Source: Bacillota bacterium
Lineage (GTDB): Bacteria; Bacillota; Sulfobacillia; JAJYWN01; JAJZPE01
Direction of reading: 5' to 3'
DNA length: 64,000 nucleotides
Assembly (NCBI GenBank): GCA_036504675.1
Contig: DASXUT010000147.1
Span: 10,545-74,544 of the forward strand
Part shown: positions 2,478-54,725 of the stretch, in pieces
How the letters are laid out: every line of letters starts with the position of its first letter
Position numbering within the stretch: the stretch's first letter is position 1
Notes under the pieces: generated by a model
What the model was told of the DNA's origin: nothing
Database searches by the model: none
What the model saw: only the letters and a program-made list of their open reading frames with translations
Made by a program: the position numbers and the translations under genes

Positions 2478-3263
2478 TCAGGGAACCAAGCGTTGTTTCA
2501 GCCGGCTCAGGCGGCCCCTGAGCCGGAGGATGGCCTTCGAGTGGAGCTGGGAGATGCGGGATTGGGAGAGGTTCATGATCTGGCTGATCTCCTTGGCCGT
2601 CAATCCTTCGTAGTAGTAGAGGGCGGCGACCAGGCGTTCTTTTTCCGGCAGGCGGTCGATGGCCTCGGCCAGGAGGGCCTTCTTCTCCTCGAAGATGACG
2701 AAAGCCACCGGGTCGGGGGAGTTCTCATCGACGATGGTGTCCATCGGCCGGACCAGGCCGTCGCCGGAACCCTCGTTGGGCCATAGGTCGTCCAGGGAGA
2801 GGAGGGAGAGGCTCGAGACCTCGCTCAGGCGGTCTTGGAGGCCACCCAGGCTGATCCCGAGGTGCCCGGCCACTTCCTCGTCGCTGACCGACCGCCCCAG
2901 CCTGGCCTCCAAGTCTCCATAGGCCCGTTCGAGCTCCCTGGCCTTCTGCCGGAGAGAGTGGGGCGCCCAGTCGAAGGCCCGCAGGCCGTCGAGGATGGCC
3001 CCCTTGATTCGGGCGATGGCGTAGGTCTCGAACTTGACCCCGCGCTCGTGGTCGAACTTCTCGATCGCGTCGATCAGCCCGAAGATACCGTAGCTGATGA
3101 GGTCGTCCAGTTCGACGTTGGGCGGCATGCCCATGGCCAACCGGCCGGCGATGTACTTGACCAGCGAGGCATAGTTGAGGATCAGTTCCTCCCTGGCCTT
3201 CAGGTCCTTGCCCTTCTTATAGAGGGTCCAGAGCTTCTCCCGGTCGTCGGCGACGGCTGCCAT
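2478..3263 (-). CDS. fliA: flagellar sigma factor sigma-28 (FliA/SigD/WhiG family)
   Basis: 261 aa; sigma-70 regions 2 and 4 (ETYAIARIKGAILD ... LTAKEISQIMNLSQSRISQLHSKAILRLR); last gene block of fla operon. Confidence 0.9.
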   Translation of the reverse strand: MAAVADDREKLWTLYKKGKDLKAREELILNYASLVKYIAGRLAMGMPPNVELDDLISYGIFGLIDAIEKFDHERGVKFETYAIARIKGAILDGLRAFDWAPHSLRQKARELERAYGDLEARLGRSVSDEEVAGHLGISLGGLQDRLSEVSSLSLLSLDDLWPNEGSGDGLVRPMDTIVDENSPDPVAFVIFEEKKALLAEAIDRLPEKERLVAALYYYEGLTAKEISQIMNLSQSRISQLHSKAILRLRGRLSRLKQRLVP

Positions 3264-3661: not shown

Positions 3662-4348
3662 TCAGATGAGCCCCCTTCGTCTGAGCCTCCGCTGTTCTTC
3701 GAAGATGAAGCTGATGATGGTGTCCATCTCTCGTTCGTTGACATCGAGGAACTTGACCCCCGTCCAGTGCTCGACGATCCGGCCCTTCTCCTCAGACTTG
3801 ATGATCCGGACGATCTCCCCCATCAGGTTGATCGTCTCCCTCGGCCGGAGCTGGATCTCCATGTCGACCAGGGTGCCCGATTCGAGCTTCTGGTCGATGA
3901 CCAGCATCGACCCACCGCCGGAGAGGTCCCGCGTCCGCCCCCTGAAAACGGTCATGTTCTGCTGGGCCGATAGCTCCGGGTTGGGATCGTTGGGGTGGGC
4001 CAGGATCGTGTAGAGGATCGGGAGACTGGCATCCAACCGCACGTGGGTGCGGCGCTGCATCCGCTGGGTGACCTCGGGCTTGGTGATCACCCAGAGGGCG
4101 ATGACCCCCGATTCGAGCTTCAGAAGCTCAGACTCGAACGAGTAGACCGCCGACTCGCCCGTCCAGTCCACCTTGAGCAGGGTCCCGGCGGGCGCCGCCA
4201 GGGCTACCCCCTGGGTGATCGGGGCGGCGATGACGAAGCCCTCGGCCCGCTCGTCGACGAATTGAGAGCTGTACCTGCCGGCCAGCGTGCCGGCGAGGAC
4301 CTCGACACTCAGTCGCTGATTGACGCTTGGTGCTCGGTCGAAAGCCAC
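3662..4348 (-). CDS. PilZ-domain c-di-GMP receptor, flagellar brake YcgR/MotI(DgrA)-like
   Basis: 228 aa; RxxxR motif (QRRTHVR) and D/NxSxGG motif (DLSGGGS) of PilZ; YcgR-N-like N-terminus; located in fla operon. Confidence 0.8.
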   Translation of the reverse strand: MAFDRAPSVNQRLSVEVLAGTLAGRYSSQFVDERAEGFVIAAPITQGVALAAPAGTLLKVDWTGESAVYSFESELLKLESGVIALWVITKPEVTQRMQRRTHVRLDASLPILYTILAHPNDPNPELSAQQNMTVFRGRTRDLSGGGSMLVIDQKLESGTLVDMEIQLRPRETINLMGEIVRIIKSEEKGRIVEHWTGVKFLDVNEREMDTIISFIFEEQRRLRRRGLI

Positions 4349-25463: not shown

Positions 25464-25727
25464 GGACTACACCTCCGGACCTGGGGCGGGGCTGGTCGGG
25501 GCGGGGCCAGGGACAGGTCCATGGGGACACAAAAAGGGGGACGATAGCGCCGGGTTTCCCGCTGCCTCCGAGCCCCTTTCACAGGGCGCCGAAGGCACGG
25601 GAATAACCTCCATGTCTCGAGGAGCCGTCATGGCCCCAGCCGCCATCCTTGGCGTCGCTTGACCCGGGGTTAATCCCCCTGGTGGACTGGATATGGGAGC
25701 TTACTGCGGTCGGCGGAGCGAGGGCCT

Positions 25728-26546: not shown

Positions 26547-26930
26547 TTAGCGCCTCCCCTCGGTGATGGCCGACCTGAGCAGAGCGAACTGGCTGGAGAT
26601 CTGCTTGACCAGGGCGTCGTAGTAAATGGTGTTCTCGGCCAGCTTGGTCATTTCCGCGTCGACATCGACGTTGTTGCCGTCCTGGCGCGTCGAGGTGGTG
26701 CTGTCGGTGACGACTTTGGGTTGCCAACCATCCCCGGCCGAGCCGTTCGATGACCGCCTGCTCTCCTCAGCGAGGAGGCCTTCGAAGGAGACGTCGGAGC
26801 GCTTGAACCCCGGCGTGTCGACGTTGGCCAGGTTGTCGGCGAGGACCGTGTTCCGCAGGGAGGAGGCATTCAGCCCCCGCTCCAGGAACTTGACCACTTC
26901 TGGGAAGATCGCCTTGGATATCACCGTCAT
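26547..26930 (-). CDS. flgB: flagellar basal-body rod protein FlgB (start at second ATG with AAGGAGGG SD)
   Basis: LADNLANVDTPGFKRSDVSFEGLL; first gene of the operon. Confidence 0.85.
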   Translation of the reverse strand: MTVISKAIFPEVVKFLERGLNASSLRNTVLADNLANVDTPGFKRSDVSFEGLLAEESRRSSNGSAGDGWQPKVVTDSTTSTRQDGNNVDVDAEMTKLAENTIYYDALVKQISSQFALLRSAITEGRR

Positions 26931-27077
26931 CCCTCCTTGGGCCACCGGCCGGGCGTCCTTGCCCGACCCAACCTGGGGGCCGAGAAAACTCTTCGTCTCC
27001 AGCTAAACTCTTTCGACCTCGGGTCCGATACTGAGAGCAGGAGACCAGCGCTCTCGGTCCTGGTGAAAAGACCCGAC

Positions 27078-27117
27078 AAAAAAACCTGTCCTTTGGCGCC
27101 AGGCGCCGAAGGACAGG
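27078..27117 (-). terminator. intrinsic terminator = expression platform of the riboswitch: 16-bp stem (CCUGUCCUUCGGCGCC/GGCGCCAAAGGACAGG) + U7
   Basis: read directly: plus 27085-27117 perfect inverted repeat (one G.U), A7 on plus = U7 on minus transcript, about 150 nt upstream of flgB. Confidence 0.7.
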
Positions 27118-27149
27118 TAAAGGCGACTAAAAACAGCCTTCCCCCGTGT

Positions 27150-27250
27150 TTACCTCCGGCAACCCGGCCATCGACTACGGTTCCACCGTGCCGACCCGTG
27201 GCTTTGCGTCCCCACCTTGCGATGGGTTTGCCTTGAAAACGGAGCTTTCG
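27150..27250 (-). promoter_or_regulatory. c-di-GMP-I (GEMM) riboswitch aptamer in flgB leader
   Basis: minus transcript ...AAGGCAAACC CAUC-GCAA-GGUG GGGACGCAAAGCCACGGGUCGGCACGGUGGAACCGUAGUCGAUGG...: the two hallmark conserved blocks (GGCAAACC; GGGACGCAAAGCC-ACGGG) flanking a GNRA (GCAA)-capped hairpin, then a second hairpin, as in Vc2/Cd1. Confidence 0.7.
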
Positions 27251-27383
27251 GGTTTCGACATTTCTGTCGGTACTTTGTCAGATACGCCACCCTGCTGGAA
27301 ACTCCTTCTTCCAAAGGAAAATTTTTTTGGATTTCTCCCCCCTTTTCACTTTTCCCCCCAGCTAGGGACGGTTCCAGTGGCCC

Positions 27384-27441
27384 CTCGCGGGGCCTTCCCG
27401 CGGCCCCTGCTAGCCCATGCTAGCAGGGGTTTTGTTCTTTC
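27384..27441 (+). terminator. plus-orientation terminator-like element: GGCCCCTCGCGGGGCC hairpin, then CCCCTGCTAGC-CCAT-GCTAGCAGGGG hairpin followed by TTTTGTTCTTTC
   Basis: read directly; in minus orientation it is A-run + hairpin (not a terminator). Sits between endonuclease III-like gene stop and the riboswitch promoter region. Confidence 0.4.
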
Positions 27442-27457
27442 TAAAGGGGTCCTTCGC

Positions 27458-28174
27458 TTATGCCCGCGGCGGCGCCACCTTGTCAGGGGTCCCATCTTGT
27501 CGGCAAAGGCCGGCCAGCGGGCACTCGCCGCACCCGGGCCTGGACTTGAGACAGATACGGTGACCGAGTCGGTCGATGAGGGCGTGGAACTCGTTGAACA
27601 GGCCGAGGTCGGCCGGCAGATGACCGTGGAAGAAGGCCTGCACTTCATGGTAACGCGGAGACCGAAAGGTCTCCGGCCAATGGCCGAGCCGCCCGAAGAC
27701 CCGGTAGGTGTAGGCATCGACGACGAAGGAGGGCAGGCCGACGGCATAGACCAGGATCGAGTCGGCCGTCTCCGGCCCGATCCCATACACGCCGAGCAGC
27801 TCGGGGCGGAGCTCGGCGAGCGGCCGGTCGGCCATGGCCTCGACCCGCCCGCCGTAGCCCTCGACCAGGTGCCGGGACAAGGCTTGGAGCTTACGGGCCT
27901 TGACCCGGTAGTAGCCGGCCGGCCGGATCAGTTCAGCCAGGGCATCGCCGTCGGCGGCGGCCAGGGCCGCCGGGTTCAGCAGACCGGCCGCGTCCAGGCT
28001 GGCGATGGCCTTTTCGACGTTGCGCCAGGCCACAGCCTGGGTCAGGATGGCGCCGACGGCCACCTCGAAGGGGGTCCTGGCCGGCCACCAGTGACGCGGA
28101 CCGAAGCGGGCCAAGAGGTGGTCGTAGACCTCGGTCAGGGCGGGGGGCCGGACGGGGCGGCCGCGCCCGCTCAC
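27458..28174 (-). CDS. endonuclease III-like HhH-GPD DNA glycosylase with C-terminal 4Fe-4S cluster loop (GTG start)
   Basis: HhH motif LLGVYGIGPETADSIL, Cys ligands CLKSRPGCGECPLAGLC (C-X7-C-X2-C-X5-C). Confidence 0.8.
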   Translation of the reverse strand: MSGRGRPVRPPALTEVYDHLLARFGPRHWWPARTPFEVAVGAILTQAVAWRNVEKAIASLDAAGLLNPAALAAADGDALAELIRPAGYYRVKARKLQALSRHLVEGYGGRVEAMADRPLAELRPELLGVYGIGPETADSILVYAVGLPSFVVDAYTYRVFGRLGHWPETFRSPRYHEVQAFFHGHLPADLGLFNEFHALIDRLGHRICLKSRPGCGECPLAGLCRQDGTPDKVAPPRA

Positions 28175-52879: not shown

Positions 52880-54725
52880 CCAGTTTGACACCTCATTTAC
52901 GTAAATCGTTGCAGCCGAAGGGCTGCAACGATCAAGGGTAGGACGTACCACAACATTGCTCTCGGGGGTCAGATTAGGCCCGTGGCAGCTCCTTCACATG
53001 CACCGGCGGCCTCATCCCCAGGGCCCGGAAGGCCAGGTCGGCATGGCCGACAAGCTCCGTCCGGGCCAGGTACCGCTGACCATCGAGGTGGATCTCCACC
53101 GCCTTCAGTTGCGACAGGTGTAAGAGTAGGTCATCGTAGCGGACGTCCTCGGCCAACTCCCTCAGCCTCCGCCGCAGGGCCACTTCCAGGACAAGGGCCA
53201 GGAAGCAGACCATCACGTGCCCCCGAATCCTCTTCTCCGTCCAGTGATAGACCGGCCTCAGGTCAAGGCCGGACTTCAGTTCTCGGAATGCTCGCTCCAC
53301 CTGCCAGAGGCTCTTGTAGGAGAGGGCCGCCTCTTCCGGGCTCAGATCGCTGTTGGTCCTGATCACGTACTTGCCATCATACCGGGCTTCTTCCTGAAGG
53401 GCCTTGTCATTGATCCTCAGCTCGGCCCCGTCGATCTTCAGATACCTCCGGTAGGCGCTGTTGCCAATGAGCTGCTTGGCCTTGCCCGATCGGAGCTTGT
53501 CTCTAAGGCTCGCCACCGCTGCTTCCCGGACCTTGGCGTCGTGTTCAACTTCATCCGGGTTCAGGCAGACGACGTAGCGAATCCCGTCATGGACGACTTC
53601 TTTCACCTCGAGGTTCTTGGCCACCTTGTGGTAGCGCCCCGCCCGCGAGAGGACCTCGTCGGCCGCCTTGAGCTTTCTCATCCTCACCCCGACGAGGTAT
53701 TCCAGGTGGGCGTTCTCGATCTCCTCAAGGACCTTCTTGGCAACCATTCCCCGGTCGGCCACCAGGATCACCCTTGAGAGGTTGAACCGCTCCTTCACGC
53801 TCTTCAGCACCTGGCGGAAGGTGTCCACCTCGGCCGTGTTCCCGGGGAAGACCTCGTGGGCGATGGGGAAGCCGTCCCGGGACATCAGCACCCCCACCAT
53901 GATCTGCACCTGGTCGGGCCGCTTGTCCTCGGAGAAGCCGTACTCGGCCAGCCCCTCCGCGGCCCGGCCCTCGAAGTAGGTGGTCGTGGTGTCCCACAGG
54001 ACGAGGTCCAGGTTGAGGTTGAAGAGATCACTCGATCGCGCGTAGACCGCCTTCTCGATCCCTTCCTTGTGCTCGTCGAGAAAGTCCAGGGCCCGGTAGA
54101 AGTGGTGCAGCTCAAGCTGCTCCCACTCGGGGCGGTGGACGGTCTTCATCCACTCGCTCACCCCGAGCTTGGACATCGGGTCCACAAGGCGGTTCAGGGC
54201 CATGGCGAAGGCGGCCTCGGCCAGGTCCGAGACGATGGCCGTGTCCGAGAGGAGCCGCTCGAACACATCCTGGAGGCCGAGGTCCTCCCAGAGCCGGCGG
54301 AAGATCAGGGCGGGGCCCCACGTCCTGGCCCACTTGGCTTCGGGGGCCAGGAGCCGGGCCTGTTTCCTGATGAGCTCATGCCGGCTGAACTTGGCCAGGC
54401 CCTCGACGAGACGGTCCAATTGGCCGTCCTCAAGCTCGTCGAGGCGCCCGAGGTTGGCGACGACCTTCTGGCGGACCCTGTCACCGACACGCACGCCGGC
54501 GACAATCTGGAGGTATGTGCGGCTGGAGCCGTCCTTGTTCTTAAAGGTCTTTGTGCGTACGAACATAGCATAATCATAGTACCATGATTACCCGGTAAAT
54601 GCAATACCTTAGGGCTGCACACGTGGCACAACATTTCGAGACCTTGGAGAATCCCGCTCTTCGCGTACCAGGCCTTTGTCCGTTCCGCAGCATCCAAAAA
54701 GCCCGTCAGCTGTCAAACTAGAGTT
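52880..54725 (-). mobile_element. IS1634-family insertion sequence (boundaries approximate)
   Basis: single DDE transposase ORF; flanking imperfect direct repeats AGGGCTGCA...CACAACATT (52919-52960 and 54609-54636), palindromes ATTTACGTAAAT and GTTGCAGCC-GAAG-GGCTGCAAC at left end; AT-rich right flank. Confidence 0.35.
52974..54566 (-). CDS. IS1634-family (IS4 superfamily) DDE transposase
   Basis: 530 aa; N-terminal MFVRTKTFKNKDGSSRTYLQIV hallmark, DDE region ...VADRGMV...; family-typical length. Confidence 0.9.
   Translation of the reverse strand: MFVRTKTFKNKDGSSRTYLQIVAGVRVGDRVRQKVVANLGRLDELEDGQLDRLVEGLAKFSRHELIRKQARLLAPEAKWARTWGPALIFRRLWEDLGLQDVFERLLSDTAIVSDLAEAAFAMALNRLVDPMSKLGVSEWMKTVHRPEWEQLELHHFYRALDFLDEHKEGIEKAVYARSSDLFNLNLDLVLWDTTTTYFEGRAAEGLAEYGFSEDKRPDQVQIMVGVLMSRDGFPIAHEVFPGNTAEVDTFRQVLKSVKERFNLSRVILVADRGMVAKKVLEEIENAHLEYLVGVRMRKLKAADEVLSRAGRYHKVAKNLEVKEVVHDGIRYVVCLNPDEVEHDAKVREAAVASLRDKLRSGKAKQLIGNSAYRRYLKIDGAELRINDKALQEEARYDGKYVIRTNSDLSPEEAALSYKSLWQVERAFRELKSGLDLRPVYHWTEKRIRGHVMVCFLALVLEVALRRRLRELAEDVRYDDLLLHLSQLKAVEIHLDGQRYLARTELVGHADLAFRALGMRPPVHVKELPRA

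Follow-up and report, generated by a model that had tools for sequence, protein, structure and literature searches.

The window analysed here is a stretch of 64 kb (64,000 nucleotides, nt) from the metagenome-assembled genome (MAG) of an uncultured 'Bacillota bacterium'. The G+C fraction of the window is 0.63-0.73 per 2 kb and about 0.66 on the whole, somewhat lower than the 70% or so first estimated. The element under study lies on its minus strand, at 27244-27078, in front of a string of flagellar genes; it is composed of a predicted aptamer for cyclic di-GMP (c-di-GMP), of the class-I or GEMM type, followed by an intrinsic terminator. All the surrounding genes are found on the same strand. 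Upstream of the element are a gene for a GNAT protein (29475-28171) and one for an HhH-GPD DNA glycosylase (28174-27458), its immediate neighbour. Downstream is flgB (26547-26924), with which the flagellar string begins and whose identity, already proposed in a first-pass annotation of this DNA, is supported by a match to TIGR01396 (107.2 bits, with a cut-off of 59.05). The start of flgB is placed, by homology with relatives, at the GTG at 26924, while the longest open reading frame (ORF) begins at 26945; depending on this choice, the region between the glycosylase gene and flgB measures 512-533 nt. The aptamer is located past the end of the upstream gene, on the sense strand, 230 nt upstream of the flgB start.

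Between 27246 and 27150, the minus strand contains the hallmark blocks of GEMM RNAs: AAGGCAAACC, a CCCAUC-GCAA-GGUGGG hairpin and then GGGACGCAAAGCC. The conserved blocks quoted in the first-pass annotation, AAGGCAAACC-CAUC-GCAA-GGUG-GGGACGCAAAGCCACGGGUC and GUCGAUGGCCGGGUUGCCGGAG, are all present, and the second helix of the aptamer closes with GAUGGCCGGGUUGCCGGAG. When the 64 kb were searched against Rfam 15, a single match reached the gathering threshold: 27241-27154 on the minus strand, with a score of 65.6 bits and an E-value of 2.9e-13. Being the only match, and with such an E-value, it is real and far beyond chance. The expected family, RF01051, was found only in part: the clan (CL00126) is matched above threshold, but the best model is the variant family RF03167, "c-di-GMP-I-GGC" (gathering score 59), rather than RF01051 (gathering score 35). 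A further, lower-scoring model of the same clan passes its own threshold, and this is presumably RF01051. A covariance model built for the present analysis assigns 88.5 bits to the window aptamer.

Rfam match, covariance model, covariation and folding together place the aptamer at 27154-27244. Its P1 helix is formed by CUCCG (27244-27240) and CGGAG (27158-27154); the P1a/b hairpin spans 27231-27206, with the GCAA tetraloop at 27220-27217, and P2 spans 27203-27161, all on the minus strand.

For comparative analysis, close relatives were collected by exact-protein look-ups of the nearest FlgC proteins. Four of these loci (L083, L085, L086 and L087; FlgC 72–75% identical by BLASTP) form, along with the window, the "five lineages" referred to below. 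A FlgC-anchored scan, with one genome per species, yielded at least 80 distant loci, the matches listed being 48–62% identical. The close relatives feature a common gene order: GNAT, sometimes a nitroreductase, glycosylase, a spacer of about 400–470 nt and flgB-flgC-fliE. In L088 (FlgC 70% identical) a nitroreductase gene is followed by a spacer of about 670 nt and by flgB, without the glycosylase.

All the close relatives have a GEMM aptamer before flgB. Among the distant matches listed, it precedes flgB in at least 10 of 80 genomes, namely L014 (Carboxydocellales), L015, L016, L029 (Halanaerobiales), L032 (Neomoorella), L034, L046, L048 (Symbiobacterium), L053 and L056. Twenty aptamers preceding flgB, from the window and its relatives, were aligned over 18 base pairs. 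Standard pairing is observed in 98.3% of the cells, against 20–44% when the partners are slid; 12 of the 18 pairs show two-sided compensatory changes, and none of 500 shuffles reaches the observed covariation score. In L087 the register of P1 is shifted (UCCUC/GAGGA), and pairing is kept. Aptamer, terminator and anti-terminator (see below) are maintained as one unit, in the same orientation before flgB, in the five lineages. A metagenome scan with the aptamer-to-terminator pattern returned one true relative, L092, whose leader has the same sequence as that of L085; four other matches were discarded as due to chance, since no aptamer blocks are found around them.

Some flgB leaders contain GEMM aptamers in tandem: L087 (644-729 and 820-907), L048 (2177-2270 and 2373-2469), L029 (598-673 and 768-843) and L034 (2172-2264 and 2308-2400), while the window has a single copy. 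In L087, L048 and L029 each copy features its own terminator-like hairpin. Among the tandem carriers are S. thermophilum and L087, the latter being closely related to the window (FlgC 75% identical).

The nucleotides expected to contact the ligand may be located by comparison with Vc2, the Vibrio cholerae aptamer used as reference for RF01051. In Vc2, G20 contacts one guanine of c-di-GMP, while C92 forms a Watson-Crick pair with the second one (PMC5888326); the roles of the G20, A47 and C92 positions are documented (PMC5888326, PMC11218506). Their equivalents in the window, on the minus strand, are a G at 27232, an A at 27205 and a C at 27159, the last one being unpaired in the P2/P1 junction. 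G is present at the first position in 19 of 20 homologues, A at the second in 20 out of 20. The distance from the first to the second is 27 nt in the window, the same as in Vc2 (20 to 47) and in Bc1 from Bacillus thuringiensis (11 to 38).

The term "GGC" in the name of RF03167 we take to list the nucleotides at these three positions, the variant having a G in place of A47. The RF03167 consensus, GACGCGAAg, is consistent with this meaning: when aligned to GACGCAAAG of the window, it features a G where the window has the A. This defining G is found neither in the window nor in any of the 20 aptamers. Assignment to one or the other family does not follow the binding site. RF03167 is the best model for 10 of the 16 aptamer matches upstream of flgB (the window and 9 of 15 in relatives), all of them with the canonical A, and related aptamers with identical binding-site residues are divided between RF01051 and RF03167. 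The split, in spite of identical pockets, indicates that the RF03167 label follows the shape of P2, and the window does share the short P2 form of that family (ACGGGUC...GAU(G/A)GCCGGGUUGCC; ACGGGUC...GAUGGCCGGGUUGCC). Judged from its sequence, the window element lacks the defining feature of the GGC variant, and the assignment as class I, canonical, stands. The clan score above threshold, the canonical equivalents of G20, A47 and C92, and the covariation all support the class-I aptamer originally proposed, with c-di-GMP as its predicted ligand. More in general, the RF03167 model captures many canonical aptamers, and annotation by the best hit may assign a wrong ligand class when the binding-site column is not inspected.

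An A at the G20 equivalent characterizes the c-AMP-GMP (3',3'-cGAMP) GEMM-Ib RNAs. This type was ruled out for the window, where a G is found at 27232. Among the 20 aptamers, a single A20-type, GEMM-Ib-like case is found, in front of the flagellar operon of L046, a Symbiobacterium sp. MAG: at 2447-2537, upstream of flgB, the G20 equivalent is an A (AAAAGCAAACC).

The type of tetraloop (27217-27220 in the window) and the form of P2 (27161-27203) change together. In the clade of the window, where the tetraloop is GCAA or GUAA, P2 is an uninterrupted, G-C-rich helix (GUCGGCNCGG...). A GAAA tetraloop goes with a receptor-like motif, CUAAAG/CCUAAG, in the P2 of several relatives, among them L088, L046 and L048 (first copy).

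After the aptamer an intrinsic terminator is found, at 27118-27078 on the minus strand. The spacer from P1 to the terminator is 35 nt long, shorter than the previous estimate of about 45 nt. The stem (27118-27084) is composed of 10 base pairs (bp; 27118-27109/27093-27084), a C27108.A27094 mismatch and 5 further bp (27107-27103/27099-27095), closed by the 3-nt loop CUG and followed by U7 (27084-27078), whose first U can pair with A27118. The two arms, 27118-27102 and 27100-27084, are 17 nt each and 94% complementary. The hairpin and the U7 had been correctly recognized, while the stem, described as a perfect one of 16 bp, turns out to have 15 bp and the C.A mismatch; it is because of this mismatch that a consensus terminator scanner missed the hairpin. 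Its folding energy is -26.5 kcal/mol, with z = -4.3 relative to shuffled sequences. The terminator is conserved in L083, L085, L086 and L087, in L086 with a compensatory G>A / C>U change. In all these lineages the mismatched C (27108) is retained, probably because it is used by the alternative structure described below.

The 3' arm and U-run of the terminator (27079-27096) also form an 18-nt inverted repeat, 83% complementary, with an A7T4-rich block upstream of the aptamer (27311-27328; CCAAAAAAATTTTCCTTTGG). The block is also kept in L083 and L086. Base composition probably accounts for the repeat; otherwise, the block may represent a promoter-upstream element.

The main competitor of the terminator is a helix that includes part of the aptamer itself. 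Its 5' strand, GCCGGGUUGCCGGAGG (27153-27168), corresponds to the 3' strands of P2 and P1; its 3' strand, CCUUCGGCGCCUGGC (27098-27112), corresponds to the upper 5' arm and the loop of the terminator and contains CCUUCGGC (27112-27105), both strands being read on the minus strand. Within the 3' strand, CCTTCGGCGCC is invariant across the five lineages. When the transcript is cut at the terminator loop, the minimum free energy structure pairs GCCGGGUUGCCGGAGG with CCUUCGGCGCC(N)GGC in 5 out of 5 lineages, and the spacer contributes two further helices, ACGGG/CCUGU and AAGGC/GCCUU. For the window transcript, truncated at the loop, the anti-terminator fold is predicted at -70.0 kcal/mol, and a fold constrained to include P1 at -55.1; for the full-length transcript, the anti-terminated (-74.6 kcal/mol) and the P1-plus-terminator (-74.2 kcal/mol) structures are nearly isoenergetic. 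The isolated duplex scores -26.8 kcal/mol, while shuffled arms give -13.9 +/- 3.1, with none of 2000 as low. The four close relatives keep the pairing, and at most 2% of shuffles are as low as their duplexes. A different anti-terminator, AGGUAAA (27155-27149) with UUUACCU (27121-27115), had been suggested at first. The two segments are indeed complementary, with a duplex energy of -7.3 kcal/mol in the window, but this is a minor register: in the five lineages it reaches -5.8 to -11 kcal/mol, against -20 to -27 for the pairing of 27168-27153 with 27112-27098, and it was rejected as the main switch helix.

Aptamer and terminator share no nucleotides, which makes the bound state compatible with termination. 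The only strong competitor of the terminator, in turn, consumes both P1 and P2, so that the ligand should favour termination. The components of a terminator-based OFF platform are all found: a G+C-rich hairpin with a U-run, and an anti-terminator, exclusive with it and built from aptamer strands, supported on both thermodynamic and comparative grounds. The OFF logic of the first-pass annotation is maintained, with the apo alternative sequestering the 5' arm of the terminator: from the folding models, the element is most likely an OFF switch, acting by transcription termination at high c-di-GMP.

The following mechanism may be proposed. At low c-di-GMP, the nascent GCCGGGUUGCCGGAGG (27168-27153) would pair with CCUUCGGCGCCUGGC (27112-27098), while the spacer would make its two short helices; the entire 5' arm of the terminator would be sequestered, allowing read-through into flgB. 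At high c-di-GMP, the ligand would lock P1 and P2 through the equivalents of G20, A47 and C92, leaving the hairpin 27118-27084 and its U7 free to form, and transcription would stop at about 27078. Since a fliA/sigD-type gene is part of the same string, late flagellar genes would be expected to drop as well.

The element is presumed to be transcribed as the leader of flgB, from a transcription start site (TSS) upstream of it. A candidate promoter region may be indicated in CTGACAAAGTACCGACAGAAATGTCGAAA, at 27255-27290 (minus strand), a conserved block that is kept in L083 and L086 and occurs twice in L085. By eye, 27290-27255 shows a weak resemblance to either a sigma-A (CTGACA-17-TCGAAA) or a sigma-28 promoter. 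On the other side of the terminator, the leader extends for 153 nt (27077-26925, minus strand) to the GTG at 26924. This segment is strongly conserved in the five lineages and absent elsewhere. Its conserved features include a block, CUCCUGCUCUC, at 27043-27033, where CUCUCC(C/U)(A/G)CUCUCAGUAUCG is found, an AGUUUAG motif, a hairpin, GGGC-AAGGAC-GCCC, at 26964-26951, and the Shine-Dalgarno sequence (SD) of flgB, CCAAGGAGGG, at 26940-26931. The segment matches no Rfam family, either in the search of the 64 kb or in a low-threshold search of 26900-27500.

On the whole, the region 27244-27078 is read, with a probability of about 85%, as a canonical class-I c-di-GMP riboswitch, with a termination platform, in the 5' leader of the flagellar string. 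Several points weigh against this conclusion. A scan for sigma-70 consensus promoters between 26500 and 28500 found nothing, and another start site, or a regulator, could be located in the conserved 153 nt that follow the terminator. The best-scoring Rfam model is the variant family RF03167, for which, to our knowledge, no ligand is established. Distant relatives mostly feature no direct complementarity between the 3' end of the aptamer and the arm of the terminator: the platform is built differently in them, and the anti-terminator described here is accordingly lineage-specific. The energies reported come from thermodynamic models, which omit both ligand energy and folding kinetics. Finally, the direction of a c-di-GMP riboswitch is not extrapolable from one species to another, and several copies in Clostridioides difficile are non-functional (PMC6366702).

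The aptamer might bind c-di-GMP and regulate otherwise: as an ON switch, through Rho or RNA stability, or on translation, by means of the conserved 3' leader. This appears improbable. A class-I ON switch (Bc2) and cases independent of termination (Vc1, Vc2) are known (reviewed in PMC6366702), the post-terminator leader is long and conserved, and its CUCUCC block could pair with the GGAGGG of the SD; yet a strong, conserved terminator with U7 stands directly past the aptamer, without overlap, and the sole strong alternative pairing removes it at the cost of P1 and P2, an OFF-switch geometry. Even less credit may be given to a location of the element outside the flgB mRNA, or to its being a decayed copy, with the operon promoter between 27077 and 26925. 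The lack of an identified promoter upstream of 27244, the conserved blocks of the post-terminator segment and the precedent of non-functional riboswitches in C. difficile (PMC6366702) would fit such an arrangement, but not the conservation of aptamer, terminator and anti-terminator as a unit before flgB in five close lineages, nor the GEMM aptamers at the same place in at least 10 further genomes among the matches listed; moreover, all binding-site and structural positions are intact, and a separate hairpin (27431-27402) follows the upstream glycosylase gene. Just as hard to defend is a true c-di-GMP-I-GGC element, sensing a ligand other than c-di-GMP. RF03167 is the top model for the window (65.6 bits, with a gathering score of 59), as for 9 of the 15 related matches; set against this are the A at the A47 equivalent, in GACGCAAAG of the window and in all 20 aptamers, where the consensus of the variant has a G, the division of sister aptamers with the same binding residues between the two families, which tracks the shape of P2, and the gene context itself, a flagellar operon with a PilZ gene being a classic one for c-di-GMP.

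Besides the post-terminator leader, the flgB operon contains a second conserved non-coding segment. The fliE-fliF spacer (25464-25727, minus strand) is 264 nt long in the window and 209–306 nt in L083 (3308-3613), L085, L086 and L087, but only 32 nt in L088. Its elements are a hairpin (ACGCC-AAGGAU-GGCGG), the block CAUGGAGGUUAC and, just before CCCCCUUUUUGUGUCC, another hairpin, rich in G+C. Its overall fold is not more stable than shuffled sequences (z = -0.85), and no Rfam match is found in it; it may work as an attenuator within the operon, or else bind a protein. Both conserved segments (27077-26925 and 25727-25464) hold a hairpin with AAGGA(C/U) in the loop, and in the flgB leader a second GGA motif overlaps the SD at 26940-26931. 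Lineage conservation, together with the resemblance of the GGA-loop hairpins to CsrA-type sites, suggests that the operon could be under a further, undescribed post-transcriptional control, through such sites or through CUCUCC acting as an anti-SD. The suggestion is a tentative one, and rather unlikely to hold. If it is true, three or more layers of control would be stacked on a single organelle.

The flagellar string covers about 24.5 kb: it begins with flgB and extends past flhG and the PilZ gene to fliA. After flgB, the gene order is flgC, fliE, fliF, fliG, fliI, fliK, flgE, fliL, fliM, fliY/N, fliO, flhB, flhA, flhF and flhG, followed by the genes for a PilZNR+PilZ protein, a 132-amino-acid protein without any family match, a FliA/WhiG sigma factor and FapA. 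The sigma factor gene (2478-3263, minus strand), of the SigD type, lies at the distal end of the string and is recognized by TIGR02479 (269.6 bits, with a cut-off of 189.6). No convincing minus-strand intrinsic terminator was found within the 24.5 kb, and flgB is presumed to be co-transcribed with the genes that follow, down to those for PilZ and FliA.

The PilZ gene (3662-4348, minus strand) sits between flhG and fliA. Its product matches the Pfam domains PF12945 (PilZNR; 41.4 bits, 1.6e-10) and PF07238 (PilZ; 55.9 bits, 6.1e-15), and matches none of the NCBIfam equivalog models. The translation contains RTHVR and DLSGGG, intact instances of RxxxR and DxSxxG (in general form, (D/N)xSxxG), which a PilZ domain that binds c-di-GMP is expected to contain. 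The YcgR-like PilZ protein of the first-pass annotation is confirmed as to domains, motifs and inclusion in the same gene string, while its inclusion in the same operon depends on the presumed continuity of the transcript. By architecture and motifs, the protein may be described as a receptor of the YcgR/MotI type, with a putative interaction with the motor; it would act separately from the riboswitch, on already existing motors. The same PilZNR and PilZ architecture, with RxxxR and DxSxxG, is that of YcgR from E. coli and of MotI/DgrA from B. subtilis, which act as brake or clutch; the window gene differs in being inside the flagellar string, between flhG and fliA. No GGDEF or EAL genes are found among the window ORFs scanned.

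The closest known system is Cd1 (Cdi-1-3), already indicated as a precedent in the first-pass annotation and documented as such: a class-I aptamer in the flgB leader of C. difficile, which works as an OFF switch by termination, in an operon containing sigD (PMC6366702). Cd1 raises termination in vitro and lowers flgB-operon expression, flagella and motility (PMC6366702). The two share the class-I aptamer, the early flagellar operon led by flgB, the terminator, the long leader and the presence of SigD/FliA in the operon or string. The OFF behavior of Cd1 was shown by experiment, that of the window is predicted by computation. The window differs also in its host, an uncultured Bacillota lineage with about 66% G+C, in the PilZ gene of its string, in the anti-terminator, formed by direct pairing of the 3' half of the aptamer with the arm of the terminator, and in the GCAA tetraloop with a receptor-less P2. 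The flagellar switch of C. difficile is flanked by inverted repeats; in the window, no similar repeats are found around the 3' leader, where only weak, long-range ones are present.

Vc2 and the window element share the GGCAAACC block, the GNRA-capped hairpin, GGGACGCAAAGCC and the three ligand-contact equivalents; the window element has GCAA instead of GAAA and, in P2, a continuous G-C-rich helix instead of the CUAAAG-type receptor present in more distant relatives. Vc2, in addition, does not act through a terminator (reviewed in PMC6366702). Bc1 is also a class-I element from Bacillota, with terminator-based repression and a long stretch from aptamer to start codon (PMC11218506); it differs in having two terminators, a GAAA tetraloop with its receptor, and different target genes. 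From the RF03167 variant, with which it shares the form of P2 and the best score, the window is distinguished by the A at the A47 position.

The arrangement is already known from C. difficile, and the window carries an ordinary class-I example of it. A flgB-leader c-di-GMP OFF switch, characterized only in C. difficile, is here extended to a high-G+C, uncultured Bacillota lineage; GEMM aptamers also precede flgB in at least 10 further genomes, among them Symbiobacterium, Halanaerobiales, Neomoorella and Carboxydocellales, which indicates that the motif recurs and is not peculiar to clostridia. A literature search found no paper describing flagella controlled by both a riboswitch and a PilZ protein within a single operon; the combination is what current knowledge predicts, and is not surprising.

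Two further features of the window may be mentioned. Directly after the glycosylase gene, at 27402-27431, a perfect 11-bp hairpin is found (CCCCTGCTAGC/GCTAGCAGGGG). A T-run accompanies it on the plus strand only, yet no plus-strand gene is near; on the minus strand, another G+C-rich hairpin comes next, without a U-run. A DDE transposase ORF (PF01609) is located at 52974-54566, on the minus strand, far from the flagellar cluster.

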